A stretch of 64,000 nucleotides of DNA, from assembly GCF_003918875.1 (NCBI RefSeq), contig NW_025765736.1, forward strand, positions 682,001 through 746,000, given 5' to 3'. Position 1 is the stretch's first letter. Every line of letters starts with the position of its first letter. Below are positions 1 to 55,855 of this stretch, one piece after another. This stretch comes from Haliotis rubra. Lineage: Eukaryota. Both the position numbers and the translations under genes were made by a program. Under the pieces are notes generated by a model. That model was not told where the DNA came from. It worked only from the letters and a program-made list of their open reading frames with translations, and searched no databases.

Positions 1-1760
1 CTGACCATACTACATATGCAGTGATGCCGGTATACTTATTGACTATACTACATATACAGTGATGCCGGTATACTTACTGACTATACTACATATACAGTGA
101 TGCCGGTATACTTACTGACTATACTACATATACAGTGATGCCGGTATACTTACTGACTATACTACATATACAGTGATGCAGGTATACTTACTGACTGTAC
201 TACATATACAGTGATGCTGGTATACTTACTGACTGTACTACATATACAGTGATGCAGATATACTTACTGACTATACTACATATACAGTGATGCTGGTATA
301 CTTACTGACTGTACTACATATACAGTGATGCAGGTATACTTACTGACTATACTATATATATACAGTGATGCAGGTATACTTACTGACTGTACTACATATA
401 CAGTGATGCAGGTATACTTATTGACTATACTACATATACAGTGATGCAGATATACTTACTGACTATACTATATATACAGTGATGCAGGTATACTTACTGA
501 CTATACTATATATACAGTGATGCCGGTATAATTACTGACTATACTACCTATACAGTGATGCAGATATACTTACTGACTATACTACATATACAGTGATGCT
601 GGTATACTTACTGACTGTACTACTACATATACAGTGATGCAGGTATACTTACTGACTATACTGTATATACAGTGATGCAGGTATACTTACTGACTATACT
701 ACATATACAGTGATGCAGGTATACTTACTGACTATACTGTGTATATACAGTGATGCAGGTATACTTACTGACTGTACTACATATACAGTGATGCAGGTAT
801 ACTTACTGACTATACTATATATACAGTGATGCAGATATACTTACTGACTGTACTACCTATACAGTGATGCAGGTATACTTACTGACTGTACTACATATAC
901 AGTGATGCAGGTATACTTACTGACTATACTATATATACAGTGATGCAGGTATACTTACTGACTGATGCAGGTATACTTACTGACTATACTACATATACAG
1001 TGATGCAGGTATACTTACTGACTATACTACATATACAGTGATGCAGATATACTTACTGACTGTACTACATATACAGTGATGCAGATATACTTACTGACTA
1101 TACTACATATACAGTGATGCCGGTATACTTACTGACTATACTACATATACAGTGATGCAGGTATACTTACTGACTGTACTACATATACAGTGATGCAGGT
1201 ATACTTACTGACTATACTACATATACAGTGATGCAGGTATACTTATTGACTATACTACATATACAGTGATGCCGGTATACTTACTGACTGTACTACATAT
1301 ACAGTGATGCAGGTATACTTACTGACTATACTATATATACAGTGATGCAGGTATACTTACTGACTGTACTACATATACAGTGATGCAGGTATACTTATTG
1401 ACTATACTACATATACAGTGATGCCGGTATACTTACTGACTGTACTACATATACAGTGATGCAGGTATACTTACTGACTATACTATATATACAGTGATGC
1501 AGGTATACTTACTGACTGATGCAGGTATACTTACTGACTATACTACATATACAGTGATGCAGGTATACTTATTGACTATACTACATATACAGTGATGCCG
1601 GTATACTTACTGACTATACTATATATACAGTGATGCAGGTATACTTACTGACTATACTACATATACAGTGATGCAGGTATACTTACTGACTATACTACAT
1701 ATACAGTGATGCAGGTATACTTACTGACTATACTACATATACAGTGATGCTGGTATACTT
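1..1760. repeat. 38-bp minisatellite (TATACTACATATACAGTGATGCAGGTATACTTACTGAC)n
   Basis: Directly visible tandem array running off the left edge of the window, upstream of the first coding exon of CABIT gene 1. Confidence 0.95.
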
Positions 1761-1939
1761 ATTTACTGACGCTACTATGCATACAGTTATGTAGGTATAA
1801 TACGTTACTGACTGTATTACATATACTGTAGCGATAATTACTTACTACATATCTGTGTAGGTACTATGTACATCATTGCCGCGTTCTTTACATAAAAGAA
1901 TGAAATCTGTTTAATACGTCGACTGTTTTGCAGGGCCAG

Positions 1940-4900
1940 ATGGAGAGGATTTTACAGTTTGAAACCAATGAAGAAGGCTATCCTATGCCGGAGTTCTTTG
2001 ACCGGTACTCGAAAAGGATGCCAGTGTTTGCTGTAGTCACGCAGGGTTGCCTTGGGGTAACCGATCTAGAGACATTCGCCTCTGAGCAGGTGAGACGTAC
2101 ATACCCTCTGCTAATACGCCTACAACTGACCTTTTAACAGATTAAATATGAACATATGTAGGATGAAAAGCCGACGTTTGGGAGGAAATAAAATGTATTA
2201 GTTTCCCAGTTTCCTAGAATTTGTCATCTTTTCTCAAAACGTCGTGTATTAATTTGTAATACGTGTGTTGTATCTTCAAAGGTTCTGGACATTGTCAAAC
2301 TCGAAAGCAAAGTTGATACGTTCAGCTCTTTAAAATTTGCAGATTATGCATTTAAGCAAGCATAAGGCATAAATTGTGTTCCTTTCACCCCCCCTGTGTC
2401 CCCTTGAGTTCAAGCCCTAAATCTGTCAACTTTTATTTACTCATTTCTATCCCATACAGCCTCTGTTCTGCCACAGCTACGTCAAACAGAGGCGAGTGGT
2501 CGCGCGGGACTCACGTGGCAGGACAATCAGCATCCCCGAGGAGTACCCCATGAAGTTCAAGATCGTCATATCCAGAAGTAAAGGTGTGAAAGTCACTCTT
2601 GAACAATGAAAACAAAAACAGCTCATGCCAATAATTCAAATCAATGATTTATATATGATTCTTAACTTTGTCAGTAGGGTGTGGTCACGTATAGACAGCC
2701 GATATCAATGTCGACTTAACCGATCAATAATCATTCAATTATCGGAGCAATCATTCCACTCCCATCTCCACCCGCCTTTCCAGCTAATTCTTCTTCAGGG
2801 TGCCGATCCACAAAGCGTTCGTAGCACTGCGACATTCGTAACCTTAAGATAAACTATAGAGTTACAACAGGTCGTAACGTTACGAATGCTTTGTGGATCG
2901 TAACCCTGCTCCAGCAAGAAAACCGCAACTGTTTCCGACCTCACATATACGTCCACGGCCGCATCTTGCCTCACGCCCACAAGAAAGCTTTGATCCAAGT
3001 AAAAGATCAAACAGACAGCAGTGTAACTTGCCGGTAGTAATAAATGTTTGTTTCTAAAAATATATAATACTTCATTCTTGAGAGGAGGATATTTTTATCT
3101 CAATACACATATGTCAAGTATACATTTGAAAAGAATGACATGTTTTATGATACCTATAAAACGTGGAGAAGTATGTATCTGTGATTTATGAGGCTTTTGT
3201 TTCTTGCCTATATCAGCTCAACATCTTGGGGAATACTTACAATGATGACAATATTGGAGGAATTTTGATTCTGTGAATTCTTTTCAACGTGATCGGTTCC
3301 TGACATACATGTACATGGAAGTTAGCGACTTATTTCAATGATTACCTGATTCTGTTAAGTAGGTAAGGTCTCTGATTCACTGACTGTCCTGGTTTTTTAA
3401 TGATTCATATGAATTTGAAAGGATTGAAAAACAAAACATTTGCACCAGATCACAAATTGTTATTTTTCCCTGATCAGTAGTTAAGTTTACATAAGCTACA
3501 AGCAATAACTCAATTTCCATGATATGATATCATAGAAAAGGTGGTGAAAAAATAACTAAAGCTATTTCTCAAGCGTAATACAGATTTAAGAAGACTAGAC
3601 AGTTCCTTGTGAAACTCTTGTTGTTTCAGTGGGGCCAGAACAGACAATGAAAGAGATCCTGCGTGAGAACAAACTGCCAGTGCAGGTTAAGTTTGCTGCT
3701 CCCTCCAATGTTGCCTTCTATGTGGGGTCTAATCGACAACAGGCCAAGGACCTCAGTAATCTCGCACTGTCACGTATCTACGAGGAGACGTACATCCTGG
3801 CTAGTGGCGTCTATGGGCGTACGTCTAATTACTGCCTGCTGAAGAAGTATAAAACAGTTCCTCGAATAACGATTTTACTATCTTACGTTGACCATTCACA
3901 ACACAATTATATGTACCGATAAAAAGGATCGCAAAATTCTAGATGTAGCATTTAAAAGTTTGAAAATTTTAACTCTTTACCTGGTTTCTTATTCCCGGAA
4001 TAATAGATGTTTTAGTTAATATATCTAAAGATAATACCATGTCCATACTTACTTCTACACCTGAAGCTGCGGTAGTGTGGGCTAGTGGTTAAAGCGTCGC
4101 TCGTCACGCTGAGGACCCAGGTGTCATTCCCCACATGGACACAATATCTGAAGCCCATTTCTGGTGTCCCCCGCCGTGGAATTGCTAGAATATTTCCAAA
4201 AGCAGCGAAAAACCCAACTCATTCACTCAAAATCTGACTTTTCAAAAGACAGAAGACAGTTTCAAGAGCTTTTATTTCAATTGATCTTAGTTAAATGTTT
4301 TGAATATAGAGCTATAATGCAGCCCTCTCACCTGTCCAGGTACCGTGGATAAGCAGGTGTTGGTGGTGCCCCTATACCTCGGTGACCTGCAGGTGTCCAC
4401 AGTGAAGGGCGTGGTCGGTATGAAGGATGCGGAGTGGAAGACCATGTATGCTGAACTAACACAGTCTCTGAAAGATGTCAAAGTTCCTCCCAACTTGGGA
4501 AATAATGGTAAGATACTATAAGCCTTCACTGTCGGAGCTCCCCAGTTGGATAAAGTGAGTGAGTGGGTGAGTTTAGTTTTACGCCGCACTCAGCAATATT
4601 CCAGCTGTATGGCGGCGGTCTGTAAATAATCGAGTCTGGGCCAGACAATCAAGTGGTCGACAGCATGAGCATCGATCTGCGCAATTGGGAACCGATCACA
4701 TATGTTAATCAAGCCAGCGAGCCTGACCACCCGATCCCGTTAGTCGCCTCTTACGACAAGCATGGGTTGCTGAAGGTTCATTCTAACCCGGACCTTCACG
4801 GGTCAATTGGATAAAGAGTGTTTGAATGTGTTTGTCTGTTTTAAGACGCTTTTAATGCCTATTCTTTGAGAAGTAAAGGAGTTTCACGTTAATATTAACA

Positions 4901-16002: not shown

Positions 16003-16784
16003 GCGATAAGTGTAAGATGAGAAGGACGGTGGGGGTAAGATGAGAAAGGCGATAAGTGTAAGATGGGAAGGACGATGGGGGTAAGATGAGAAGGACGATG
16101 GGTGTAAGATGGGAAGGACGATGGGAGTAAGATGGGAAGGACGATGGGGGTAAGATGAGAAGGACGATGGGAGTAAGATGAGAAGGGAGATGGGGGATAA
16201 GATGAGAAGGAGAAGGACGATGGGAGTAAGATAAGATGAGTAGGACGATGGGATAAGATGAGTAGGACGATGGGGGTAAAGATGAGAAAGGACGATGGGG
16301 GTAAGATGAGAAGGACGATGGGGTAAGATGAGAAGGACGATGGGGGTAAGATGAGAAGGACGATGGGGGTAAGATGAGAAGGACGATGGGGGTAAGATGA
16401 GAAGGACGATGGGGTAAGATGAGAAGGACGATGGGGGATGGGGACGATAAGTAAGATGAGTAGGACGATGGGAGTAAGATGAGTAGGACGATGGGAGTAA
16501 GATGAGAAGGGACGATGGGGTAGTAAGATGAGTAGGACGATGGGGGTAAGATGAGTAGGACGATGGGTGTAAGATGAGGACGATGGGGTAAGATGAGAAG
16601 GACGATGGGGTAAGATGAGAAGGACGATGGGGGTAAGATGAGAAGGACGATAAGGTAAGATGGAGAAGGACGATGGGGATAAGATGAGTAGGACGATGGG
16701 GGTAAGATGAGAAGGACGATGGGGGTAAGATGGGAAGGACGATAGGGGTAAGATGAGTAGGACGATGGGGGTAAGATGAGTAGG
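16003..16784. repeat. 23-bp purine-rich satellite (GGGGGTAAGATGAGAAGGACGAT)n, left part
   Basis: Direct tandem array that continues in register after the Polinton-like insertion. Confidence 0.95.
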
Positions 16785-16937
16785 TGTTGTACACAGGCTG
16801 GAATGGCCCTAAATCCGCCATTTTGATTTTATGACGTCATCATCGAACACCTGGCTGACCTCATTTCACAAGGGTGTCAATGACCTTGTACTGAGTTGAC
16901 CTTGGATTAAACAACTTTTCCAAGCGGTATTTTTAGA
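16785..16937 (+). repeat. Left terminal inverted repeat of the Polinton-like element
   Basis: Reverse complement of 21304-21456; contains CCGCCATTTT (YY1-like) and TGACGTCA (CRE). Confidence 0.95.
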
Positions 16938-18384
16938 TCAGGAGCATAGCAACCGAAAAAAAAATGACATCAGGGTAGTCATGTAGATTTACATGTGTAA
17001 GAGTGTGCAAACTCACTCCGGTGTGACTCACCCTGACCGAGGGGTCAATAACCGCGCGTCCCGTGGGAAACACATCATAGCATCACACCATGACATCATC
17101 CCATTAATTTAGACCAATCAGCGTAGAACAACTATCGGACTGACTGGACCACTGACCACAAACTAGTTTCATCCGGTTTCAATTTTACCTATTAAAAAAA
17201 CCCTCTGACAGTCAGTTGAAGTTATCATTTTGTCTTCTTACAAAATGTTTATATTTTCTATACTCAATAACCTTTTCTGCGGCCTGTGGAGAAAATCTGT
17301 CATCTCAGAGCGCGCGCCGTTGAGGCATGGTGAATTAACAGTCGCAGCCTCCACACACTTCCCTCGTCTCACTCAGCCGAGGTGTAATATGATACCTCCT
17401 CAAGTTGTACTCAAAATCGTGGGTCTAACATTAGCCTGTCTCACGTGTCTGACCCATATTATTTTGCCTACAGCCTAGCCCTCCCTGCACTGCTAAGGCT
17501 CTAAATGAAGTCTAGATTTCCCCCAGGTCTGCCTTGGGCTCCTTGTCAATTTAAATAGGTTTGTTTGTTACTATCAAGATAATACATTCAGAGACTAAAC
17601 ATTAGTCTAGTCAAACATGTGCACTCATATGTGTAAAAAAGAAATTATACGGGTTTTATAACACATTTGTTCAATGCAATCAGCGTTCATTGCCACATGA
17701 AAATGATTTGAGTTTGTCTTGACCATCACCAGAACAACCCAACTCAATAGAATTTCAAATGTATTTCAAACTTACCGGTATTCACATTCCATATTTGAAT
17801 ATCCAATCCATATTGTCATTGTATCCTGCCTTGTAATGCGATAAATTTAGGAATCAGGGATGATATTGAGATGTTATACCCAAATCCCATATGTTTGTGA
17901 TTGTATTGAATGAATCAACCACCAAAACACATGAGACTAATATTGCACCTTCCATGTAAATAGAACATATGTTATATCTGGGATTGTGTTGTGCAAAATA
18001 CTCTCCCTCTCACAGTGCTAGCAGAGACGCGATCTGGTGACCCACATTTGCGTGTGTGGGACTATGCTGTGGCGGGAGGGGTAGGGGAGGGACGGGGGCA
18101 CTGCTGTGGCAGAGGGAGGGAGGTTTCTGTCGACAGTTATAGCCTGACGACATTTCTCGTGAGTGTAAAACACCCATAAATATAAATGCTCGTTAGAATG
18201 AACGCTAGCTAGGGCGTGTCAGCTTTGAAATGTGCGTTCTGGTCATGGGGTTTTTGTACATCATATTTAGGAATGCAACTTTCAACTTTCTAAAATTCCA
18301 TCAGGAAAGGGGTGTAATTGTATAGTGTTAGCATGAAAGAGTAATCATAAATGACAATTCACAGGTGTATATTATTTTCATATG

Positions 18385-18530
18385 GGTATTTATATAGCAC
18401 TATAGTCCATACCGCATGCATGCTCAAAGGGCTGGTAACTTTTTCCTTGGATGTCAATCACCATTCTCAACTCCCCGGGGAGCATCTTGCTGCCACTAGG
18501 CGCACTAAGTTAATGTGGCTCCCAACGAGG
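18385..18530 (-). mobile_element. SINE 3' fragment (family C) nested in the Polinton-like element
   Basis: Similar to the 3' parts of 42165-42640 and 57830-58010. Confidence 0.65.
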
Positions 18531-18657
18531 TATACATCACAAAAAAACAAGATAAACTGATTTTCATTTTTTTATTAGCTCCGTTTCAAACGAGTACAAC
18601 TACGGGATAGGAGCGCTCCCAGAAGTTTACTTTACATCTGTTGTCTTATCACCGTTC

Positions 18658-20561
18658 CTAATCGTCATGGCCTTCACTCTCTTCATCAGATGTTATGTCT
18701 GCATTATCATCTTCGGTCAAGCCTTCGACCCAAGACTTATATTGGTACAGATTGGAAAACACATCATGATACAGATTATTTGTGTCTCCTACTTGTTTCA
18801 GTATTCCTTGTGTCTTTGGACCATACTGCATATGGAACAGATAAGTAATAAACCAGGCATACGTCTCTTTAAACGTGCTCCACATGTATTTGTTCAGTTT
18901 GGCTTGAATCGTGTCTTCGTTTAAACCTCTTTTCATGTACAGCTGTCGTTTCTCATCCAAAAAGTCTTTATTCAGCTCACGTGTACGTGAATACATTTGT
19001 CTTATACCTTGCTCTTCGAGATCAGCCATCTTTTTTTTCCTGTTGTTTTGTGCGACTTCGTTTAATGATTCATCATCATCATCATCATTTTCCATTTCAG
19101 GACATTGTTTATCGTGTAAATGTCTTTGTAAGTTGTGGTTATTGCTAAACACTTGACCGCAATAGTCACAATCTGACAGTGTACGCGGTGCCTTCACAGG
19201 AGAGAAGTTGTCGTCTTCCTCCCTCTTCCTTTTAACTTGGGGTATTCCCGGTGGACACACTGAAGACTTTACAGGACACTAGTTTCTTCTGTGTTTTTGC
19301 AAATCATGCACGTCTTGAAACATGAGTCCACAGTCATCACAAGATGGCATGGTTGGGAGGTTTTCTTCACACGTCTGCTCACGCCGAAAGTCTAACTCGG
19401 ACTGAATGGTCCTAGCTTGGTTGTCTCCTTTTAAGCTGAATGCATTGGGGCAAAGTCGCAAATGGGGAGGTGTTTGGGGTTTTAGATCAACCAACAAGTA
19501 ACCATATGGTTTCTGGATAGCCCTTTGAAACGGCTCCATGAAACGGTCTGTGTTACCTGGATACATTTGCCTCGCCAAAGTCATGATGGGTTGTTGATCG
19601 ATAGGGTTGTTGAACAGAAGCAGATAATGGCAGTTTCTTCGTTGTGTGGGATCCTTATAGTCTCTCGTACAGACCCTGAAGCAAATATATCCAAGAAAGC
19701 CCACACAAGTCTAGAGAATGTGGCAAGTCTAGATTTCCTCAGCTTCAGGAAGAAAGTCTCAGGGCTCCTTTTCATTATATTTTATTTTTTTTACTATGAA
19801 CTTTTTTCAGTAAAATATGTTCATTTCAGAGACTAGTTGTTAGTCTAGGATCCTTACTGAAATACAAATTCTGGTTCAAGGCTATCACTGAGATTACGAT
19901 GATGACTTCCTTCCGTAAACAGATCTGTAATGCGTGGATCTTTGCCCGCTGTCGACATTAAGTCGTCGAGGATCACCACATTCACCACATGGGGGTCCAG
20001 AAACGCATCCTTTTCGAGATCAGAAGGAATGCCTTGATGAAATTCCACATAGGGATAAACATGGGTTTGAATGGTGTTATACAAGGGCTGCCATCGTTTG
20101 TAGAGCCAAATAATACGTTCAGGATAAGGTTTAATGTTCATGCGTTCTAGAATCTGTTTCACTAAGTACGTTTTCCCACAGGAGGTGGGCCCTGAGACAA
20201 TCATGGTGAAGGGGTGTATCAGTCTACATTCTTCCAAAGCACCCACATGTGGTTGCACTNNNNNNNNNNNNNNNNNNNNNNNNNNNNNNNNNNNNNNNNN
20301 NNNNNNNNNNNNNNNNNNNNNNNNNNNNNNNNNNNNNNNNNNNNNNNNNNNNNNNNNNNNNNNNNNNNNNNNNNNNNNNNNNNNNNNNNNNNNNNNNNNN
20401 NNNNNNNNNNNNNNNNNNNNNNNNNNNNNNNNNNNNNNNNNNNNNNNNNNNNNNNNNNNNNNNNNNNNNNNNNNTCGTCTGTGTTGATTCCTGAGATGTC
20501 TAAGCATGGCATCCCTTCTGGAAAACGTCTGATAGCACACGGGACACGTTGCTGACTGCAT
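18658..20561 (-). pseudogene. C2H2 zinc finger + A32/FtsK-like DNA packaging ATPase + two further zinc fingers (Polinton/adintovirus type), disrupted
   Basis: N-terminal CPVC...HLRNQH; Walker A SGPTSCGKT; Walker B VVILDDLM; LFTEGSHHRNLS; RRNCHYLLLFNNPID; KPYGYLLVDLKP; then CDDC...HRRN*CP and CDYC...HLHDKQC. Lesions: frameshift near 19885, 190-bp insertion 19658-19847, TAG at 19279-19281 (probable W codon). Assembly gap 20260-20474. Confidence 0.85.
19658..19847. mobile_element. 190-bp insertion in the ATPase gene with 9-bp duplication GGATCCTTA
   Basis: GGATCCTTA at 19649-19657 and 19848-19856; internal short IR TAGTCTCT...AGAGACTA; related sequence at about 17425-17612. Confidence 0.7.
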
Positions 20562-20657
20562 GGTGGTCCGAGTCTAAATGGCAAAGAACCTGTCTACTAG
20601 CTGCTTTTATCTAAAAACACGTCTTCCGTTTCTTTGTGCGACTCTGGGAGGAAGTCA

Positions 20658-20915
20658 TTATTTTGGCTTCAGTTTCCCCGTTCTCCTGCATCTGAATACG
20701 TGCTCTGGCCTGTTGAACGACTTGTTGGGTTGGAGACGTGAGAGCAAACTTTTCTGTAGAAGGGTTAGGTCTATCTTTACCCCTTGTTTCTCATAATAGA
20801 TCACATAATCATCCACGTTAGTAAAGGGATTGGGATATCCTTTAGCCTGCAAATAGTAATATTTGGTCCATTTCTTAGGATCGTCCAAATAGGGTCTCCA
20901 GTATCGTCTGTTCAT
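20658..20915 (-). CDS. Small Polinton/adintovirus-like putative virion protein (PYxxDPKKWxxYYxxQA motif), probably truncated
   Basis: ORF between the penton-like remnant and the ATPase, co-oriented; motif resembles small proteins of invertebrate Polintons from memory. Confidence 0.45.
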   Translation of the reverse strand: MNRRYWRPYLDDPKKWTKYYYLQAKGYPNPFTNVDDYVIYYEKQGVKIDLTLLQKSLLSRLQPNKSFNRPEHVFRCRRTGKLKPK

Positions 20916-20923
20916 TATCTTGT

Positions 20924-21055
20924 TCAGAATGAATACTGACTCTCACACAGAGGTTTCAGATGAAGTGTCACTATCACGGGTCCACGGCTAAATGAAGCTA
21001 AATCACCGTTTCTGTCCTTTATATAGATATCTGCTAGCCCTAATTCTAAAAACAT
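20924..21055 (-). pseudogene. C-terminal remnant of a Polinton minor capsid (penton-like) protein
   Basis: DIYIKDRNGDLASFSRGPVIVTLHLKP resembles the terminal beta-strands (I.I.D..G...F..G.V.VTLH) of Polinton minor capsid proteins from memory. Confidence 0.55.
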
Positions 21056-21060
21056 GTTGT

Positions 21061-21132
21061 TAGCAGAGCGTGGTTTCGATCCACGGTCCTCTGGGTTATG
21101 AGCCCAGAGCGCTTCCACTGTGCCACTCTGCT
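21061..21132 (-). tRNA. tRNA-iMet: Initiator tRNA-Met (CAT) variant carried inside the Polinton-like element
   Basis: AGCAGAGTGGCACAGTGGAAGCGCTCTGGGCTCATAACCCAGAGGACCGTGGATCGAAACCACGCTCTGCTA: A1-U72, anticodon stem CTGGG/CCCAG with CAT, T-loop ATCGAAA. TTTTT terminator 8 nt downstream; TATAAAA about 30 nt upstream. Confidence 0.9.
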
Positions 21133-21303
21133 CTCCCTTCACCTACCTTTTGTTAGGACTTTTATACACCACATCAACCAATGACAACCAAAATTGATTT
21201 ATTCTCAAATAGTCACAAATACACACAGTATTGTACAATGAGCATCGCATTGAAGTCTGAATGACATGGGGACTGTTCGGGGGCCTTATATTGCCCACTT
21301 GAG

Positions 21304-21456
21304 TCTAAAAATACCTCTTGGAAAAGTTGTTTAATCCAAGGTCAACTCAGTACAAGGTCATTGACACCCTTGTGAAATGAGGTCAGCCAGGTGTTCGATG
21401 ATGACGTCATAAAATCAAAATGGCGGATTTAGGGCCATTCCAGCCTGTGTACAACA
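21304..21456 (-). repeat. Right terminal inverted repeat of the Polinton-like element
   Basis: Ends ...CAGCCTGTGTACAACA, followed by the TSD AGTAGG. Confidence 0.95.
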
Positions 21457-22401
21457 AGTAGGACGATAGGGGTAAGATGAGAAGGACGATGGGGGTAAGA
21501 TGAGAAGGACGATGGGGGTAAGATGAGAAGGACGATGGGAGTAAGATGAGTAGGACGATGGGAGTAAGATGGGAAGGACGATGGGGGTAAGATGAGTAGG
21601 ACGATGGGGGTAAGATGAGAAGGACGATGGGGTAAGATGAGAAGGACGATGGGGGTAAGATGAGAAGGACGATGGGGGTAAGACAGGAAGGACGATGGGG
21701 TAAGATAAGTGGTAGGACGATGGGGGTAAAATGAGTAGGACGATGGGGGTAAGATGAGAAGGACGATAGGGTAAGATGGGAAGGACGATGGGGTAAGATG
21801 AGTAGGACGATGGGGGTAAAATGAGTAGGACGATGGGGGTAAAATGAGTAGGACGATGGGGGTAAGATGAGAAGGACGATGGGGGTAAGATGGGAAGGAC
21901 GATGGGGTAAGATGGTAGGACGATGGGGGTAAAATGAGGGGACGATGGGGGTAAGATGAGAAGGACGATAGGGGTAAGATGGGAAGGACGATGGGGGTAA
22001 GATGAGTAGGACGATGGGGTAAGATGAGTAGGACGATGGGGGTAAGATGAGAAGGACGATGGGGGTAAGATGGGAAGGACGATGGGGTAAGATGAGTAGG
22101 ACGATGGGGGTAAAATGAGTAGGACGATGGGGGTAAGATGAGAAAGGACGATAGGGGTAAGATGGGAAGGACGATATGGGGTAAGATGAGTAGGACGATG
22201 GGGGTAAAATGAGTAGGACGATGGGGGTAAGATGAGTAGGACGATGGGGGTAAGATGAGAAGGACGATGGGGGTAAGATGAGTAGGACGATGGGGGTAAG
22301 ATGAGAAGGACGATGGGGGTAAGATGGGAAGGACGATGGGGGTAAGATGGGAAGGACGATGGGGGTAAGATGAATAGGACGATGGGGGTTAAGATGAGAA
22401 A
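21457..22401. repeat. 23-bp purine-rich satellite, right part
   Basis: Same unit and orientation as 16003-16784. Confidence 0.95.
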
Positions 22402-27000: not shown

Positions 27001-28201
27001 GTCGCGATGGGGGAGGAGGAGTGGAAGACCCTGTATTCTCAACTGAAAGCGTCGCTGAAAGACGTCAAGATTCCTCCCAACATGGGGAATAAAGGTAAGA
27101 ACATAATCTGTCACTGATGGTGCCACCAAGAAGCCAAGCTCTGATTTAAACTATGCAGTATATACAATTCAGTCCAACACCACTCGAGAAGTTGTTGAAA
27201 GAGAACCCATACTTGTCGTAAGAGGCGACTAACGGGATCGGGTGGTCAGGCTTGCTGACTTGGATGACCCATGTCATCTAATCCCAACTACATATATCTC
27301 ATGATGGTGATCACTTGATATTGCTGGAGTATTGCTGAGTGCGGCGTTAAACAAGAAACAAACAGAATGTTGTAAGAGGTAAGTGCTTCTTTTAATTAAC
27401 TGAATTCAAGTTAGGACCTGAATAACTAAAATCACTGAGTTGGTTCAAGTTTAACCAAGGCAGATGTCAACCTATAACGAATATGCACGCACTATGTATT
27501 AGATTAAATGAAGTTTGTAGTAAATGTTGGTATACTGTACGGGGTTATTATGTATTTCAGAGATAGCAGTGTTTTCGGACAGCTCCGTGGTAGATAAAGA
27601 GGACCACATCTATTCCTACATAGAGCCTTCAGAATACATCACATTCTCTCTCCTGTCACAAGGCAACGCTACTGATGATGAAAAGTATGCTGCTCCATAC
27701 TTCCACAAGAGATATCCACCCAAAGGATCCATGATATCCGAGCTACAGAAAAAACTAACCAAAACCAAAACCAAAGATGATGCACAAAGATGGAGTGTAA
27801 CAAAAGTCACTAGGAGTGTCAGTACAAGCAGTCAGGATACCAGCAGCAAACCGAAACTTCCCCCACGATCGAGTTCAGTTTCTATGGATGCAGGCGCCAT
27901 CAATGAGAGCAAAGTGCAGGGGACAGAAAGTGACGACGCCTCTACTCCTCAGCTTCCACCGCGCAGTGGTAAAACCAAAGTACTGCCCAGTCATCTAAAA
28001 GACCTGACAATAGAGGGTATGTCAAAAACTCTCAGGTCAATAAAACTGGACAAACATGTTTCAAAATTTCAAAAGAAACAGGTAGATGGGCTAATCGCCA
28101 ACGATTTTACTGCAGAAATGTTGAAAAGTGAATTTAAGTTCACAGATTTTGAAATTGTCAAACTTATGTCATTCATTGATACTGGCCACATTCCACGGTG
28201 A
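24049..28201 (+). CDS. CABIT-domain / proline-rich / SAM-domain adaptor (GAREM/THEMIS-like), paralog 2; intact, 429 aa
   Basis: Exons 24049-24216 (GC donor), 24754-24877, 26076-26264, 26927-27094, 27561-28201 sum to 1290 nt in an open frame. Internal exon sizes match paralog 1 (124/189/168). Contains HIYSYI tyrosine motif, PKLPPR/PQLPPR and a SAM-like C-terminus. Confidence 0.88.
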
Positions 28202-29220
28202 ATTTTGTCTTCTGTCAAGTCATTCTTCAGTTTTCAGATATGAATTTGGTCTTCTGTCAAGTCATTCTTTAGTCTTTTAGATATGAATTTCGTCTTCTGT
28301 CAAGTCATTCTTTAGTCTTTCAGATATGAATTTCGTCTTCTGTCAAGTCATTCTTCAGTCTTTCAGATATGAATCTAAACTTGTGTCAAGTCATTCTTCA
28401 GTCTTTCAGATATGAATTTGGTCTTCTGTCAAGTCATTCTTTAGTCTTTTAGATATGAATTTGGACTTGTGTCAAGGCATTCTTTAGTCTTTCAGATATG
28501 AATTTCGTCTTCTGTGAAGTCATTCTTTAGTCTTTTAGATATGAATTTCGTCTTCTGTCAAGTCATTCTTCAGTCTTTCAGATATGAATCTAAACTTGTG
28601 TCAAGTCATTCTTCAGTCTTTCAGATATGAATTTGGTCTTCTGTCAAGTCATTCTTTAGTCTTTTAGATATGAATTTGGACTTGTGTCAAGGCATTCTTT
28701 AGTCTTTCAGATATGAATTTCGTCTTCTGTCAAGTCATTCTTCAGTCTTTCAGATATGAATCTAAACTTGTGTCAAGTCATTCTTCAGTCTTTCAGATAT
28801 GAATTTGGTCTTCTGTCAAGTCATTCTTTAGTCTTTTAGATATGAATTTGGACTTGTGTCAAGGCATTCTTTAGTCTTTCAGATATGAATTTCGTCTTCT
28901 GTCAAGTCATTCTTCAGTCTTTCAGATATGAATCTAAACTTGTGTCAAGTCATTCTTCAGTCTTTCAGATATGAATTTGGTCTTCTGTCAAGTCATTCTT
29001 TAGTCTTTTAGATATGAATTTGGACTTGTGTCAAGGCATTCTTTAGTCTTTCAGATATGAATTTCGTCTTCTGTGAAGTCATTCTTTAGTCTTTTAGATA
29101 TGAATTTGGACTTGTGTCAAGTCATTCTTTAGTCTTTCAGATATGAATTTGGACTTGTGTCAAGGCATTCTTTAGTCTTTCAGATATGAATTTGGACTTC
29201 TCAAGTCATTCTTTAGTCTT
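28199..29220. repeat. 43-bp minisatellite with 4-unit higher-order pattern, starting at the stop codon of paralog 2
   Basis: TGAATTTCGTCTTCTGTCAAGTCATTCTTTAGTCTTTCAGATA units; variants cycle TTCGTC / TCTAAAC / TTGGTC / TTGGAC. Confidence 0.95.
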
Positions 29221-29998
29221 TCGGGCCGGTTGGGTAGCTTAGTGGTTAAAGCGTTCGCTCGACCCTGGTTCGATTCCCCACATGGGTACATTGTGTGAAA
29301 CCCATTTCCGCCGTGATATTGGAATATCGCTAAAAGCGGCGTAAAAACAAACTCTCTCACTCACATTAGTCTTTCGTATGATTATGCTTTAGTCTGATTA
29401 GCACAAATACAAAAGACTGTAAGGTAATGCCGACTTTTCCCGTGTGTTTTATAGTGTGATTATGTTAAATTATCTAATTAGTACAAACACATGAACATAC
29501 ATCTCATCTGACATTATAGCATCAATAAGCACATACAAGCACAGATCCGTCTTGGTTGTACATGACACGAACGTTTAATTCTAATTGCCTTGACAAGATA
29601 GAATCACAATTAACAAGAAACCAAGGGCGCAGTTTAGTCTTCCCGAGTCATTTCAATCCACATCTTTGTGGTGCGAACACAGTTTCACAATTAAATCTTG
29701 TTGATGTATGTGGTTGTTTTTCAGCAAATGCATCGACCATTAAGCGTTCCGCTCACACGAATTAAAGGTCTGTTTGGTTGAACAAATAGACAAACATTAA
29801 TGGCTTGAGCAGGAGATAAATTGTGTTCATATAATTAAGTAATAAATATAATTATTGTCAACGCTTTTCATTTTTTTATATGTTCTGTAAATAACACATT
29901 ATTATGTTGAACGAGGCAATCAAGGTAAATGGCTGTCTGCTTTGTATTGAGAAACATGACAAATAACACTACTCACACAATGTGCATGCTGAAGAATG

Positions 29999-39670: not shown

Positions 39671-40859
39671 TAGGCAATGGTTGCTGTTGTTCATTTTGTG
39701 ATTGTGGGTAGTGCTTGAGTAGCAAACAAAATAGTAGGAAACAAAGTACACTTCAAATTGTTGCAAAGCTACCAACAGAGCAAGAGTTCCTTATCCGTGA
39801 ATGACAAGCGGGCTGTTCAAAGCCTGAAACATGTTCTTACAACAAGAGAGCACCAATGTCGCTTGCAACTGAGATTTTCTTTTAAAAGAACGTACTTGGA
39901 AAACAGGAGAATTAATGAGAAAGACATTAATATTTCTTTAAAGCAACCTGATAATTTCTGTCCCAGACATATTTCACTCTTTGCCCAGCATCGTATTGAG
40001 AGTGGCTACCACGTGTGACAAACTATGGGATAGGAACCAGCAATGCAAAAATTGGTATTTAACTAGAAATGTTACTTAAACCCATTGACCTTCATTTCAC
40101 GAACTCTGTACTGATACGTTCAGAAGTGTAATCAGACCCATTCCGTTGTTTTCAGATAAGCTGAAATTGCTGACATACCAAAGACCTCTGAAACATTAAG
40201 AAACCATGGTTTGATAATGAGAGCAAACGGGCAAGGAATTGAGGAGAACATTTCGCAGACAACCAACTTGAAAAACAACAAATGTATAGGTAAAGAGAAC
40301 ACAATCGAGTGTCCAGTGAGTGAGTGAGTGAGTGAGTATGATTTTACGCCACTTTAAGCAATATTCCAGCAATATCGCGGCGGGGAACACCAGAAATGGG
40401 CTTCTGTTCGTTTGCTTTCAATCGTGGGTGGAAGTTTCCATGTACGTGAAATGAATTCAATTGATTATGTCGTCTAGACGTCGAAAGTGGTCGATTTCTC
40501 GGCTTTTCCGATTCGCGCCGAAAGACGTGTCAAGAAAGGCTTCAAATGTAAACAAAATATAACGTGCTATGACCAAATGATATAGGTGTTATAATCCATG
40601 ACCATTCAGCTTATAAGACAAGTCGATTTCATAAACATTTACTACTTGGAAATATCAAAATCTTACAAAGTTTGGGACTCTCTACCGGAATCGACTGTCT
40701 ATGGAGGGAATGGTAGTTGATGACGACCAACTTCTGGTTGAGCATAGACAGGGCTTACCCCCTATGAACATGGTCCTCATAAACAATGAATGTTTTTAAC
40801 ATCGGAAGCAACTGTTCGACCTCATGATGAAACATGAACTTTTTAAAGTGTTCTTATTC

Positions 40860-41890
40860 TGTCTTTGTGTGCATGGCAGGGTGTCCTGATTCTGACATTG
40901 TGTTCATGAATGCTGCCTTGATTGTGACATTGTGTTCATGAATGGTGTCCTGATTCTGACATTGTGTTCACGAGAGGGTGTTCTGATTCTGACATTGTGT
41001 TCATGAAGGGTGTCCTGATTCTGCCCTTGTGTGCACGAGAGGGTGGTCTCATTCTGACATTACGTGCATGGCAGGGCGTTCTGATTCTGTCATTGTGTGC
41101 ATGGCAGGGTGTCCTGATTCTGACATTGTGTTCATGAATGCTGCCTTGATTCTGACATTGTGTTCATGAATGGTGTCCTGATTCTGACATTGTGTTCACG
41201 AGAGGGTGTTCTGATTCTGACATTGTGTTCATGAAGGGTGTCCTGATTCTGCCCTTGTGTGCACGAGAGGGTGTTCTCATTCTGACATTACGTGCATGGC
41301 AGGGCGTTCTGATTCTGTCATTGTGTGCATGGCAGGGTGTCCTGATTCTGTCATTGTGTGCATGGCAGGGTGTCCTGATTCTGAAATTGTGCGCACGAGA
41401 TGGTGTTCTGATTCTGACATTGTGTTCATGAAGGATGTCTTGTTTCTAACATTGTGTTCATGAAGGGTGTCCTGATTCCGACATTGTGTGCGTGGTAGGC
41501 TGCCTTAATTGTGATATTGTGTTCATGAAGGCTGCCTCGATTCTGACAGGGTTGTCTGATTGTGTTCATGAAGGCTGCCTTGATTCTGACATTGTGTTCA
41601 TGAGGGGTGTCCTGATTCTGACATTGTGTTAATGAGGGGTGTCCTTGATTCTGACGCCGTGTTCATGAAGGGTGTCCTGATTCTGACATTGTGTTCATGA
41701 GGGGTGTCCTGTTTCTGACATTATGTTCATGAGGGGTGTCCTTGGTTCTGACGCTGTGTTCATGAGGGGTGTCCTTGATTCTGACGCTGTGTTCATGAGG
41801 GGTGTCCTGATTCTGACATTGTTTCATGAAGGGTGTCCTTGATTCTGACACTGTGTTCATGAAGGGTGTCCTGATTCTGACATTGTGTTC
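40860..41890. repeat. Minisatellite of about 33 bp (GGGTGTCCTGATTCTGACATTGTGTTCATGAA)n
   Basis: Direct tandem array with variant units. Confidence 0.92.
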
Positions 41891-42164
41891 ATATCTAAAC
41901 ACTCATCTGAATTGTTTCAGAGGTGTGCTTTTTCACAACACACTGGCTAAACTAAAGTATTGCCTTCGCATGCAACTTCTCAATTTAACTGTTATTATGG
42001 AAGCATCATTATTTATATATTTGTATCTATAGAATCTATGTGTTAAGCGGGTTTCTTTTGCCACTAACCATAAATGCATACCTGTGAACATTGTACAGAG
42101 GGGACCCACCCTTGCTGACACTGGTCTAAAACCAAATGGTAGTCAGTACAGTCAGTCAATGTCT

Positions 42165-50629: not shown

Positions 50630-53600
50630 TGCAACCTTCACCCTGTCAATCTTGCTCTCCTGCAGTACTTCTTTGCTGACTCTACCCTCTCCTGTATTGC
50701 TGCTTCACGCCACCAGATCAGACACCTTCACCCTGTCAATCTTGCTCTACTGCAGTACTTCTTTGCTGACTCTACCCTCTCTAGTATTGCTGCTTCACCC
50801 CACCAGATCAGACACCTTCACCCTGTCAATCTTGCTCTACTGCAGCACTTCTTTGCTGACTCTACCCTCTCCTGTATTGCTGCTTCACGCCACCAGATCA
50901 GACACCTTCACCCTGTCAATCTTGCTCTACTGCAGCACTTCTTTGCTGACTCTACCCTCTCCTGTATTGCTGCTTCACCCAACCAGATCAGACACCTTCA
51001 CCCTGTCAATCTTGCTCTACTGCAGTACTTCTTTGCTGACTCTACCCTCTCCTGTATTGCTGCTTCACCCAACCAGATCAAGCACCTTCACCCTGTCAAT
51101 CTTCCTCTCCTGCAGTACCTCTTTGTTGACTCTACCCTCTCCTGTATTGCTGCTTCACCCATCCAGATCAAGCACCTTCACCCTGTCAATCTTGCTCTAC
51201 TGCAGTACTTCTTTGCTGACTCTACCCTCTCCTGTATTGCTTCTTCACGCCACCAGATCAGACACCTTCACCCTGTCAATCTTGCTCTACTGCAGCACTT
51301 CTTTGCTGACTCTACCCTCTCCTGTATTGCTGCTTCACGCCACCAGATCAGACACCTTCACCCTGTCAATCTTGCTCTACTGCAGTACTTCTTTGCTGAC
51401 TCTACCCTCTCTAGTATTGCTGCTTCACCCCACCAGATCAGACACCTTCACCACCCTGTCAATCTTGCTCTACTGCAGCACTTCTTTGCTGACTCTACCC
51501 TCTCCTGTATTGCTGCTTCACGCCACCAGATCGACACACCTTCACCCTGTCAATCTTGCTCTACTGCAGCACTTCTTTGCTGACTCTACCCTCTCCTGTA
51601 TTGCTGCTTCACCCAACCAGATCAGACACCTTCACCCTGTCAATCTTGCTCTACTGCAGTACTTCTTTGCTGACTCTACCCTCTCCTGTATTGCTGCTTC
51701 ACCCAACCAGATCAAGCACCTTCACCCTGTCAATCTTCCTCTCCTGCAGTACCTCTTTGTTGACTCTACCCTCTCCTGTATTGCTGCTTCACCCATCCAG
51801 ATCAAGCACCTTCACCCTGTCAATCTTGCTCTACTGCAGTACTTCTTTGCTGACTCTGACTCTACCCTCTCCTGTATTGCTTCTTCACGCCACCAGATCA
51901 GACACCTTCACCCTGTCAATCTTGCTCTACTGCAGCACTTCTTTGCTGACTCTACCCTCTCCTGTATTGCTGCTTCACGCCACCAGATCAGACACCTTCA
52001 CCCTGTCAATCTTGCTCTACTGCAGTACTTCTTTGCTGACTCTACCCTCTCCTGTATTGCTGCTTCACGCCACCAGATCAGACACCTTCACCCTGTCAAT
52101 CTTGCTCTACTGCAGTACTTCTTTGCTGACTCTACCTTCTCCTGTATTGCTGCTTCACCCAACCAGATCAAGCACCTTCACCCTGTCAATCTTGCTCTCC
52201 TGCAGTACTTCTTTGATGACTCTACCCTCTCCTGTATTGCTGCTTCACGCCACCAGATCAGACACCTTCACCCTGTCAATCTTGCTCTACTGCAGCACTT
52301 CTTTGCTGACTCTACCCTCTCCTGTATTGCTGCTTCACCCCATCAGATCAGACACCTTCACCCTGTCAAGCTTGTTCTCCTGCAGCACTTCTTTGATGAC
52401 CCTACCCTCTCTAGTATTGCTGCTTCACGCCACCAGATCAGACACCTTCACCCTGTCAATCTTGCTCTACTGCAGCACTTCTTTGCTGACTCTACCCTCT
52501 CCTGTATTTCTGCTTCACGCCACCAGATCAGACACTTTCACCCTGTCAATCTTGCTCTACTGCAGTACTTCTTTGCTGACTCTACCCTCTCCTGTATTGC
52601 TGCTTCACCCCACCAGATCAAGCACCTTCACCCTGTCAAGCTTGTTCTCCTGCAGCACTTCTTTGCTGACCCTACCCTCTCTAGTATTGCTGCTTCACCC
52701 CACCAAATCAGGAACCCTCACCCCGTCGATTGTGTTCTCCTGCAGCACTTCTTTGCCGACTCTACCCCCTCTAGCATTGCTGCTTCACCCCACCAGATCA
52801 GGCACCTTCACCCTGTCAAGTTTGTTCTCCTGCAGTACTTCTTTGCCGACTCTACACTCTCTAGTATTGCTGCTTCACCCCACCAAATCAAGCACCTTCA
52901 CCCTGTCAATCTTGCTCTCCAGCAGCACTTCTTTGATGACCCTACCCTCTCTAGTATTTATTGCTGCTTCACCCCATCAGATCAAGCACCTCCACCCTGT
53001 CAATCTTGCTCTCCTGCAGCACTTCACTCATGTCTCTACCCTCTCTAGTACTGCAGCTTCACCCCGCCAAATCAGGCACCTTCACTCTGTCAATCTTGCT
53101 CTCCTGCAGCACTTCTTTGATGACCCTACCCTCTCTAGTATTGCTGCTTCACCCCACCAGATCAGGCACCTTCACCCTGTCAAGCTTGTTCTCCTGCAGC
53201 ACTTCTTTGATGACTCTACCCTCTCTAGTATTGCTGCTTCACCCCACCAGATCAGACACCTTCACCCTGTCAATCTTCCTCTACTGCAGTACTTCTTTGC
53301 TGACTCTTCACTCTCTAGTATTGCTGCTTCACCCCACCAGATCAGACACCTTCACCCTGTCAATCTTGCTCTACTACAGCACTTCTTTGCTGACTCTACC
53401 CTCTCTAGTATTGCTGCTGCACCCCACCAGATCAAGCACCTTCACCCTGTCAAGTTTGTTCTCCTGCAGCACTTCTTTGATGACCCTACCCTCTCCTGTA
53501 TTGCTGCTTCACCCCACCAGATCAAGCACCTTCACCCCGTCGATTTTGTTCTCCTGCAGTACTTCTTTGCTGACTTTACCCTCTCCTGTATTGCTGCTTC

Positions 53601-55855
53601 ACCCCACCAGATCAGACACCTTCACCCTGTCAATCTTGCTCTACTGCAGCACTTCTTTGCTGACTCTACCCTCTCCTGTATTGCTGCTTCACGTCACCAG
53701 ATCAGACACCTTCACCCTGTCAATCTTGCTCTACTGCAGTACTTCTTTGATGACTCTACCCTCTCCTGTATTGCTGCTTCACGCCACCAGATCAGACACC
53801 TTCACCCTGTCAATCTTGCTCTACTGCAGTACTTCTTTGTTGACTCTACCCTCTCCTGTATTGCTGCTTCACCCCACCAGATCAAGCACCTTCACCCTGT
53901 CAATCTTGCTCTCCTGCAGTACTTCTTTGCTGACTCTACCCTCTCTAGTATTGCTGCTTCACCCAACCAAATCAGGCACCTTCACCCTGTCAATCTTGCT
54001 CTCCTGCAGTACTTTTTTGCTGACTCTACACTCTCTAGTATTGCTGCTTCACCCCACCAGATCAGACACCTTCACCCTGTCAATCTTGCTCTACTGCAGC
54101 ACTTCTTTGCTGACTCTACCCTCTCCTGTATTGCTGCTTCACCCAACCAAATCAAGCACCTTCACCCTGTCAATCTTGCTCTCCTGCAGCACTTCTTTGC
54201 TGACTCTACCCTCTCCTGTATTGCTGCTTCACCCCACCAGATCAAGCACCTTCACCCTGTCAATCTTGCTCTCCTGCAGTACTTCTTTGCTGACTCTACC
54301 CTCTCCTGTATTGCTGCTTCACCCAACCAGATCAAGCACCTTCACCCTGTCAATCTTGCTCTCCTGCAGTACTTCTTTGATGAATCTACCCTCTCCTGTA
54401 TTGCTGCTTCACGCCTACAGATCAGACACCTTCACCCTGTCAATCTTGCTCTACTGCAGCACTTCTTTGATGACTCTACCCTCTCCTGTATTGCTGCTTC
54501 ACCCAACCAGATCAGACACCTTCACCCTGTCAATCTTGCTCTCCTGCAGTACTTCTTTGCTGACTCTACCCTCTCCTGTATTGCTGCTTCACGCCACCAG
54601 ATCAAGCACCTTCACCCTGTCAATCTTGCTCTCCTGCAGTACTTCTTTGATGACTCTACCCTCTCTAGTATTGCTGCTTCACGCCACCAGATCAGACACC
54701 TTCACCCTGTCAATCTTGCTCTACTGCAGTACTTCTTTGCTGACTCTACCCTCTCTAGTATTGCTGCTTCACCCCACCAGATCAAGCACCTTCACCCTGT
54801 CAATCTTGCTCTCCTGCAGTACTTCTTTGATGACTCTACCCTCTCCTGTATTGCTGCTTCACCCCACCAGATCAGACACCTTCACCCTGTCAATCTTGCT
54901 CTACTGCAGCACTTCTTTGCTGACTCTACTCTCTCCTGTATTGCTGCTTCACCCAACCAGATCAGACACCTTCACCCTGTCAATCTTGCTCTCCTGCAGT
55001 ACTTCTTTGCTGACTTTACCTTCTCCTGTATTGCTGCTTCACCCAACCAGATCAAGCACCTTCACCCTGTCAATCTTGCTCTCCTGCAGTACTTCTTTGA
55101 TGACTCTACCCTCTCTAGTATGTATTGCTGCTTCACCCCATCAGATCAAGCACCTTCACCCTGTCAATCTTGCTCTCCTGCAGTACTTCATTGCTGACTC
55201 TACCCTCTCTAGTATTGCACCTTCACCCAACCAGATCAAGCACCTTCACCCTGTCAAGCTTGTTCTCCTGCAGCACTTCTTTGATGACCCTACCCTCTCT
55301 AGTATTTATTGCTGCTTCACCCCATCAGATCAAGCACCTTCACCCTGTCAATCTTGCTCTCCTGCAGCACTTCACTGATGTCTCTACCCTCTCTAGTATT
55401 GCTGCTTCACCCCGCCAAATCAGGCACCTTCACTCTGTCAATCTTGCTCTACTGCAGCACCTCTTTGCTGACTCTACCCTCTCTAGTATTGCTGCTTCAC
55501 CCCACCAGATCAGGCACCTTCACCCTGTCAAGTTTGTTCTCCTGCAGCACTTCTTTGATGACTCTACCCTCTCTAGTATTGCTGCTGCACCCCACCAGAT
55601 CAAGCACCTTCACCCTGTCAAGTTTGTTCTCCTGCAGCACTTCTTTGATGACCCTACCCTCTCTAGTATTGCTGCTTCACCCCACCAGATCAAGCACCTT
55701 CACCCTGTCAATCTTGCTCTACTGCAGCACCTCTTTGCTGACTCTACCCTCTCTAGTATTGCTGCTTCACCCCACCAGATCAGGCACCTTCACCCTGTCA
55801 ATCTTGCTCTCCTGCAGCACTTCTTTGATGACTCTACCCTCTCCTGTATTGCTGG
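50630..55855 (+). repeat. 90-bp satellite (about 58 units) derived from an LTR-retrotransposon env-like coding segment
   Basis: Unit translates as HLHPVNLALLQ(Y/H)FF(A/D)DSTLS(C/S)IAASPHQI(R/K) and runs in frame into unique IAGDTTFRK... sequence. Confidence 0.9.

Follow-up and report, generated by a model that had tools for sequence, protein, structure and literature searches.

The window examined here is a stretch of 64,000 nucleotides of the Haliotis rubra genome (contig NW_025765736.1), which carries at positions 16785-21456 a short element bounded by terminal inverted repeats (TIRs) and a 6-bp target-site duplication (TSD). An initial annotation, made from the sequence alone, had taken this element for a small Polinton/Maverick-like element with intact ends and decayed genes. 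Our analysis places it in a family of short elements (mini-Polintons, or minis) whose ends are shared with autonomous Polintons of the same genome and whose copies are multiple and have distinct TSDs; the element is almost certainly a non-autonomous Polinton derivative. On balance, sequence comparison slightly favors the view that it would be one decayed insertion of a helper-dependent satellite of Polintons, a satellite that brings its own packaging ATPase.

As first described, the TIR arms are 153 nt long with a single mismatch (arm position 141), the termini are TGTTGT...ACAACA, and AGTAGG flanks the element on both sides. The host site is a 23-bp satellite; deleting the element together with one TSD copy brings its spacing back at six of six unit starts. 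Since AGTAGG occurs 23 times in this satellite, the TSD of the window copy alone is weak evidence; a chance duplication is possible for this copy taken by itself and is rejected for the family by the TSDs of its siblings. A misassembly at the stretch of Ns, raised by the initial annotation as a possible source of the TIR arrangement, was rejected because siblings run unbroken over the same interval with identical ends. Within the element, the genes lie on the minus strand, and the reading of them as a zinc-finger-fused ATPase (ZnF-ATPase), penton-like and small remnants and an initiator tRNA (tRNA-iMet) was borne out by domain, tRNA and homology matches (Table 1). No frame for pPolB, integrase or major capsid protein (MCP) was found among the open reading frames (ORFs) examined in the element, again in agreement with the first reading. 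The penton-like piece and the small basic ORF match a full-length Polinton of the same genome; the penton label rests on position and similarity, as no Pfam match was found. The 5' part of the basic ORF has 92% DNA identity to helper Polintons of end type A (see below), and its 3' part belongs to the ATPase cassette. Three blocks of the non-coding arm (~17882-17924, 18034-18088, and 18183-18253) are 85-89% identical to the region between pPolB and TIR in the helpers on C198 and C108, and an older nested repeat lies in the same arm (~17431-17610).

Table 1. Features of the mini-Polinton and its flanks, in window positions
Feature	Position	Strand	Remarks
TSD AGTAGG, left copy	16779..16784	+	In the 23-bp host satellite
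TIR with (TGT)2 terminus	16785..16937	+	End type A of the ~16-kb helper Polintons
Terminal and subterminal segment	16785..17204		Matches the pPolB-side end of the C69 full-length element at 96% identity
Non-coding arm	17205..18657		Common to the 4.3-kb subfamily
Broken copy of the family's main gene (ZnF-ATPase)	18658..20561	-	Unbroken, 549 aa, in sibling L016
Nonsense codon TGA	19279..19281	-	Of all copies translated, only that on C2562 has it too
TAG...CTA insertion of 181 bp, together with one copy of a 9-bp duplication (GGATCCTTA)	19658..19847		Also in the C2562 copy
Small basic ORF, ~100 aa	20611..20915	-	Flanked in helpers by penton and MCP
3' remnant, 36 aa, of the helper penton-position ORF	20924..21034	-	86% amino acid identity
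tRNA-iMet gene, followed by a T run	21061..21132	-	ARAGORN; Rfam RF00005, 56.9 bits
TIR	21304..21456	-	21249-21456 is 94% identical to the integrase-side end of the helper on C69
TSD AGTAGG, right copy	21457..21462	+	Identical to the left copy

The interior of this copy is wrecked, and each lesion of the kinds initially listed (frameshift, nonsense codon, and nested insertions) was found. In addition to those of Table 1, a 2-bp deletion in the ATPase near 19892 (19890..19894, minus strand) and a 1-bp deletion in the basic ORF near 20765 are private to the window copy. The 181-bp repeat, which may be of AcademH type, a label that a search did not confirm, also occurs free elsewhere in the genome (L025 and L033). 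A copy on C2562 (L011) is more than 99% identical to the window copy and has a different TSD and different flanks; an unrelated 4.7-kb insertion stands in it (L011 1955-6674) in place of ~590 bp of the C-terminal and non-coding part. As both copies have the insertion and the nonsense codon at different TSDs, at least one movement in trans of a copy whose ATPase was already dead is indicated, with gene conversion between copies as the less likely alternative. A sibling with shared lesions and another TSD, as predicted by the initial annotation, thus exists, and for this pair the proposal that the element moved after its genes had died holds. For the family it does not hold, in that lesions are mostly copy-specific, ORFs unbroken, and purifying selection evident; movement of a dead-ATPase copy is the exception and not the rule. 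Nor were only the TIRs and the tRNA kept, as had been proposed, since many siblings have an unbroken ORF with the ATPase under strong purifying selection.

The 1.38-Gb assembly was searched for related elements, with each genome search scoring the best candidates only: with the TIR, 40 matches were scored out of 250 candidates; with the ATPase, 151 matches came from the best 150 of 1241 candidates. The family of non-autonomous Polintons so identified has at least 150 ATPase matches in the genome. Both ends were located in 31 of the 55 loci scanned, giving sizes of 3.2-7.1 kb, with one longer copy (8.8 kb) that contains a further insertion; an exact 6-bp TSD was present in 28 of the 31 two-ended elements, and the TSD sequences varied. 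Two pairs of loci, L020/L021 and L023/L025, look like the same insertions assembled twice. Where the ATPase was at least 85% identical (46 loci), pPolB was found inside the element in none and an integrase in two. A stop-free ATPase match inside an open frame of at least 500 aa was present in 28 of the 150 loci listed (best 150 of 1241 candidates), and 11 of the 30 TIR- or DNA-retrieved loci with the ATPase start motif were unbroken from motif to stop. Most lesions in the family were copy-specific. The frameshifting indels were mainly of 1 bp (40 of 45), and 16 of these 40 lay at homopolymers of at least 4, compared with a background of 7% of positions, such that part of the apparent decay may be assembly error. 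Inverted forms of the cassette, head-to-head or tail-to-tail and possibly products of fold-back replication, were also observed (L050 4296-6171, L167 4255-6374, C2187, and C2372), as were minis with very long TIRs (~1.4 kb; L180 1260-7557 and L042 2362-8411), in which one arm has seemingly been copied onto the other end. An origin from Ginger or other cut-and-paste transposons was rejected: although Ginger1 and Ginger2 have TGT...ACA termini like those of the minis (PMC2836005), the minis have no Ginger or other transposase frame, their varied 6-bp TSDs are without CCGG or RTATAY preference, and their ends are shared with pPolB-encoding Polintons.

Full-length Polintons with the TIR of the window element were found, for example, on C69 (16.2 kb) and C502, both with 6-bp TSDs. 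The long parent foreseen by the initial annotation therefore exists in terms of its ends, pPolB, integrase and MCP, but its own ATPase is ~36% identical to that of the minis. These helpers encode CARD-PC4, NADAR, an rve integrase with chromodomain, a penton-position ORF, a basic ORF, an MCP, two unknown ORFs, an ATPase, and a pPolB of PF03175. The MCP model is a double jelly-roll (VIA Z 23.7 to PBCV-1, rmsd 3.3, 338 aligned; mavirus Z 18.3). Ten further elements found through pPolB have the same layout, whole or partial, and neither the ZnF-ATPase nor the tRNA was found in any of the 12 full-length elements examined. Three end types were distinguished: A (TGTTGT; six helpers), B (TGTTGT with another subterminal sequence; three), and C (AGTAGT; two), while no end was found for the helper on C2106. 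The integrases of the three types are 90-92% identical, whereas the C-terminal part of pPolB is 85% (B) and 61-62% (C) identical to that of type A. Because the integrases are this close across TGT and AGT ends, the TG...CA ends are a variant within one family that goes with the polymerase; the suggestion that they mark a distinct lineage was not upheld, and the same mini cassette occurs with both types of end. These data suggest that the terminal nucleotide may be set by the polymerase (through pPolB replacement) and not by the integrase. AG...CT termini are absent from the window element, and AGT...ACT is present in sister minis and sister helpers. The AGT and TGT termini at 90-92% integrase and 61-62% pPolB identity can be compared at L061/L062 (C1480) and L065/L066 (C366) versus L012/L013 (C69).

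Several further observations were made on the full-length elements. No protease match was found after the MCP in C69-type elements (L012 4310-6669 on C69), whereas a protease is present, and the MCP is a different one (45-50% identical), in elements of types B and C and in C198 elements (loci compared with C69: L053, L056, L057, L062, L065, and L070); the virion module thus appears to have been exchanged within one helper family. A non-coding block of ~400 bp, 95-97% identical between type B/C minis and helpers (L049 7652-8057, L041 2070-2479, L054 6029-6437, and L061 3616-4023), is a candidate cis signal for packaging or transcription. Across the genome, copies of Polintons with alpha-type pPolB are very numerous (3067 candidates, of which the best 150 were scored), many with long open frames.

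The protein that unites the minis is the ZnF-ATPase. In its unbroken form (549 aa in L016) it comprises a C2H2 finger, a proline-rich linker seen in siblings, an A32/IVa2-like ATPase, two C2H2 fingers, and a helical acidic C-terminal domain. Pfam detected the C2H2 fingers and, weakly and below cut-off, both IVa2 and A32. When the predicted structure was searched, the best viral Foldseek match was an A32-like ATPase (E 4e-5) and the ATPase model gave VIA Z 6.0-6.5 to STIV2 B204 and VirB4; the whole protein had no Foldseek match in PDB at E <= 0.001. The C-terminal helical domain gave generic helical matches only and none in the Atlas search, the basic ORF had low scores only in the Atlas search, and none of nine proteins received a useful name from NCBIfam. 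Walker A, Walker B, and downstream motifs were intact in 24-25 of 25 unbroken cores. The protein is an FtsK/HerA-type (A32/IVa2-like) packaging ATPase with homologs that adjoin pPolB, integrase, or MCP; the named homologs are molluscan.

The ATPase was placed outside the helper family by several comparisons. Identity is 95-100% among the mini types, 36-38% to the helper ATPases, and 52-73% to a broader ZnF-ATPase clade, inside which the minis form one clade (SH-aLRT 97 and 100 in two quick trees, the only support calculated, each with a minimum row of 140 aa and no row below it). A common clade of minis and helper ATPases was rejected by the AU test (p-AU 0.0004), and with it the minis as a simple deletion derivative of the helper. 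In contigs of other animals, members of the ZnF-ATPase clade adjoin pPolB and integrase or MCP and protease; the clade is therefore one of true Polinton ATPases, as the initial annotation had anticipated in asking whether the ATPase groups with Polinton or cellular proteins. The ATPase is thus indicated to have been taken not from the helper but from a different Polinton clade, a point beyond the first reading. In this genome, the donor clade was found only as rearranged remnants, 65-70% identical. No close full-length parent was found when the best 150 ATPase matches were compared by eye with the pPolB and integrase lists. Four ATPase loci near a polymerase or integrase match were examined as candidate parents: on C248, the end of an alpha Polinton abuts a truncated mini; on C2791 and C2822, a mini-type element lies 10-16 kb from a separate Polinton (on C2822, the mini side only was read); and on C2367, a longer intermediate is present (far end outside the part read). 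No loci were found in IMG/VR; GTDB gave three contigs of metagenome-assembled genomes, which are probably host DNA in bins. In one metagenome contig (L105 595-3773), two ATPases stand in tandem: a ZnF-ATPase, followed after a basic ORF by one of the helper type.

Selection on the ATPase was examined over a core of 194 codons, with L016 as the reference for dN/dS and with some copies chosen by protein similarity. Relative to L016, dN/dS was 0.03-0.16 in every copy with dS > 0.1. Among 13 copies retrieved by TIR only, substitutions found in at least two copies were synonymous in 16 cases and nonsynonymous in 3, against an expected synonymous share of 22% (P = 1e-8); for private substitutions the counts were 7 and 15 (P = 0.18); among 16 DNA-retrieved copies, shared substitutions were 29 to 11. 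Two integrase-free minis of the 4.3-kb subfamily, L016 and L024, differ by 15 synonymous and 2 nonsynonymous changes. That shared substitutions are synonymous and private ones near neutral argues that the gene is needed by the replicating lineage and decays once inserted; the ATPase is indicated to have been purged of amino acid changes along the copying lines, followed by neutral decay after insertion. No run recorded as RNA was found with the stretch among the contigs searched, and in runs presumed to be RNA the coding and non-coding parts were covered alike at a depth of ~3-4, so these may be DNA.

The remainder of the mini is a mosaic. From the helpers come both ends, the 3' piece of the penton, and the start of the basic ORF (89-97% DNA identity in blocks); minis with all three helper end types were found, some with exactly the first 28 nt of a given helper. 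The ATPase cassette starts at a conserved motif of the basic ORF and occupies the position of the helper's MCP. Intermediates that retain more of the helper were also detected: on C2367, a whole helper left arm (CARD-PC4, NADAR, a whole but frameshifted integrase, and penton) precedes the cassette, which illustrates a way for the mosaic to form; L044 retains part of an integrase; and L036 has an MCP fragment and a protease. A similar arrangement was encountered in L101, a metagenome locus of another organism (one contig of 4242 bp with no left flank), where a TGT-ended element of 4.2 kb (1-4221), to all appearance complete, starts with TGTTGCA, ends in a 340-bp inverted copy, and encodes a PZ-like ORF (PZ being our presumptive label), a basic ORF, a ZnF-ATPase, and CARD-RING, with no polymerase, integrase, or MCP. 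Since its ORFs match the basic and PZ-like ORFs of the minis weakly (E 0.007 and 0.02), this likeness rests on order and position, and an independent origin is hinted at by its ATPase, which branches apart from the minis.

Marks of a eukaryotic initiator tRNA are A1:U72, A54/A60, a CAT anticodon, and an anticodon stem with three G:C pairs. The gene in the element, called tRNA-Met(CAT) by ARAGORN, has all of these marks. In its family form it differs at five positions from the gene of the host arrays, one of which breaks a D-stem pair, and the window copy has one private change at 21108. By contrast, it shares U33 and the upstream flank with a tRNA situated just downstream of pPolB in a distant Polinton family (four of six read). 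The tRNA therefore is not the element's own, as had been assumed, but appears to derive from this third, full-length family and not from the host array. The host tRNA-iMet arrays are in tandem (C1 368755-398903; C1950 391-14465, unit ~334 bp), and tRNA-iMet sites with U33 of the distant family were noted at L071 9464-9535, L074 491-562, L076 463-536, and L077 9511-9584 (C799, C140, C1087, and C2252), among many more, flanked by pPolB and by a CARD-NADAR cassette that has 74-81% identity to its counterpart in the helper family. In the 4.3-kb subfamily the tRNA is the most conserved segment, at 0.007 substitutions per site versus 0.024-0.035 in flanks and non-coding sequence (23 non-independent copies). 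Larger minis are without the tRNA and have CARD-PC4, BIR, NADAR, or PZ-like ORFs instead.

Elsewhere in the window, large tandem arrays lie at 50634-55854, 1-1826, 40848-41892, and 28199-29222, with units of 90 bp (x58), 38 bp (x48), 32-33 bp, and 43 bp (x24); with a length divisible by three, the 90-bp unit may be coding.

Relative to Polinton/Maverick elements (adintoviruses, Polintoviricetes), the minis are alike in their TIRs, 6-bp TSD, end trinucleotide present twice, FtsK/HerA-type ATPase, penton-position and basic ORFs, and IAP-type cargo, as far as these are described in PMC8097293 and PMC8502044, and differ in being 3-7 kb instead of 13-25 kb, in having no pPolB or MCP, and in that most copies are without protease or integrase. 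The window element has the TIRs and 6-bp TSD of an autonomous Polinton and lacks its pPolB/integrase and MCP/penton/protease sets, save for the 36-aa penton-position remnant. The end motifs of vertebrate Mavericks listed in PMC8097293 are (AGT)2, (AG)3, and (AC)3A, and the mini motif (TGT)2//(ACA)2 is not among these three. Short non-autonomous Polintons were reportedly described by Kapitonov and Jurka in 2006. Non-autonomous or polB-less derivatives are, like the minis, moved in trans via their TIRs, but are deletion or cargo forms of one parent, whereas in the minis the constant gene is foreign and selected and the ends are of three types. The interior is likewise not that of a deleted helper with neutrally decaying genes, as the ATPase is foreign and constrained and the tRNA comes from a third family. 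In butterflies, polB-less polinton groups are reported to be still mobile (10.1101/2025.02.07.637071). No ATPase-only mini-Polinton whose ATPase is foreign and under selection was found described in the literature search; one may exist in Repbase, subscription papers, or supplements, which lay outside it.

Likenesses are also found among the satellites of other viruses. The phage satellites P4, PICIs, and PLEs redirect the packaging of their helpers. By inference, the minis resemble them in having their own cis ends, no capsid gene, a packaging-related protein, and a dependence on a helper, but differ in being eukaryotic, in a double jelly-roll helper, in borrowing protein-primed replication and rve integration, and in having no integrase, replicase, or repressor of their own; no homology is claimed. 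Transpovirons, Tlr1, virophages, as well as Polinton-like viruses (PLVs), resemble the minis in being small linear TIR-bounded DNAs that depend on a larger DNA virus. Transpovirons travel inside giant viruses and code for a helicase replicase. In virophages the capsid is encoded by the element itself, whereas the helper of the minis is itself a Polinton and the kept gene is a packaging ATPase. Genes for tRNAs have been reported from PLVs, virophages, and MELD viruses (PMC12220804 and PMC8502044).

Taken together, the minis have borrowed ends that they have swapped, TSDs of the integrase type, no replicase or capsid, and a foreign, constrained ATPase with intact motifs. In the satellite model that we favor, (i) the protein-primed pPolB of the helper would copy the satellite as a linear molecule from its TIRs; (ii) the helper integrase would insert it; and (iii) the satellite's own ATPase would provide an advantage after replication, most likely by loading satellite DNA into capsids made by the helper. 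We infer linear copying because the ends match far better within than between copies (0.75 versus 5.2 nt over the first 28 nt in 20 type-A minis), which fits the paired-end copying put forward for self-synthesising elements. Most new lineages would be founded by satellites whose ATPase works, while dead-ATPase copies such as that in the window would still be copied occasionally in trans. The tRNA-iMet would be conserved cargo of one subfamily that is not needed by the family, and probably a Pol III unit acting as an insulator or translation aid.

Several observations weigh against this model. The window/C2562 pair indicates that movement is possible without an own ATPase, and an ATPase of ~36% identity would have to dock on the helper capsid. 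The zinc fingers and the C-terminal domain are not inventions of the satellite but are present in full-length Polintons of the donor clade. Private changes in the 16 DNA-retrieved copies also lean synonymous (18:26, P = 0.003), and the C-terminal half is moderately constrained (dN/dS ~0.4-0.5), with shared substitutions of 8:21 in the TIR-retrieved set (P = 0.17, not significant) and 33:57 in the DNA-retrieved set. A gene that acts in trans would be expected to stay under selection only given a cis preference or a transmission bottleneck, one of which the model would have to presuppose, and the putative packaging role is supported by the selection signature and the anatomy of the element. Moreover, the loci read were ~50 of at least 150.

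Of the alternatives, the strongest, although unlikely, is that the constraint on the ATPase dates from an autonomous parent virus that the assembly lacks, the minis being repeated deletion or recombination products, propagated like any common non-autonomous transposon, in which the ORF is a passenger. Consistent with this, gene-richer intermediates exist (C2367, L044, and L036), full-length elements of the donor clade use this kind of ATPase, a dead copy has moved, and the genome searches covered the best candidates only. However, full-length-type relatives found in the genome come no closer than 65-70% identity, the synonymous excess is also evident between close 4.3-kb minis (L016 versus L024), and the four cases of an ATPase near polymerase or integrase proved to be neighboring or abutting alpha Polintons or mini-type elements. 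Less likely still is that the satellite ATPase or its fingers poison or divert helper packaging or expression, which would free pPolB and integrase or protect the host. A heterologous ATPase, the excess of minis over the helper family (at least 150 ATPase matches versus ~35 pPolB matches at >=57%), and the CARD, BIR, NADAR, and PC4 cargo of larger minis would suit such interference, but the strict retention of the catalytic motifs would be needless in a simple dominant-negative protein, and neutral decay once inserted argues against selection at the level of the host. Improbable is a satellite of two helpers, with replication and integration from the TG/AG-ended family and the capsid from another group (ZnF-ATPase clade or alpha-pPolB elements), for although many other Polinton groups are present and the tRNA from a third family implies that Polinton families meet and recombine, the ZnF-ATPase clade was found here only as rearranged remnants (65-70% identical) and the virion-type genes kept by the minis (basic ORF and penton end) are those of the end-donor family.

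The satellite model may extend to a class of its own. We tentatively propose, as a possibility that falls short of an even chance, that the minis represent a PICI/P4-like satellite class of animal Polinton viruses, capsid-less and with a heterologous ATPase, which has arisen more than once and swaps its termini to track the active helper polymerase. According to PMC8097293, no Polinton virion has been observed, and it is from conserved capsid genes that their existence is argued, with purifying selection on morphogenesis genes used to argue for Maverick particles and reinfection. An element without capsid or polymerase that keeps a selected packaging ATPase offers an independent and testable handle on this virion phase; if the proposed class is real, a selected packaging motor in a capsid-less element would be indirect evidence for particles of animal Polintons. 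Minis would go entirely unseen in surveys that, like the coral survey, demand an MCP and a length of 10 kb or more. The genome also provides a natural comparison of what sets Polinton termini, with integrases 90-92% alike across a switch of ends that goes along with pPolB. Should mini DNA be found in particles, animal Polintons would have both a virion phase and satellites of their own.

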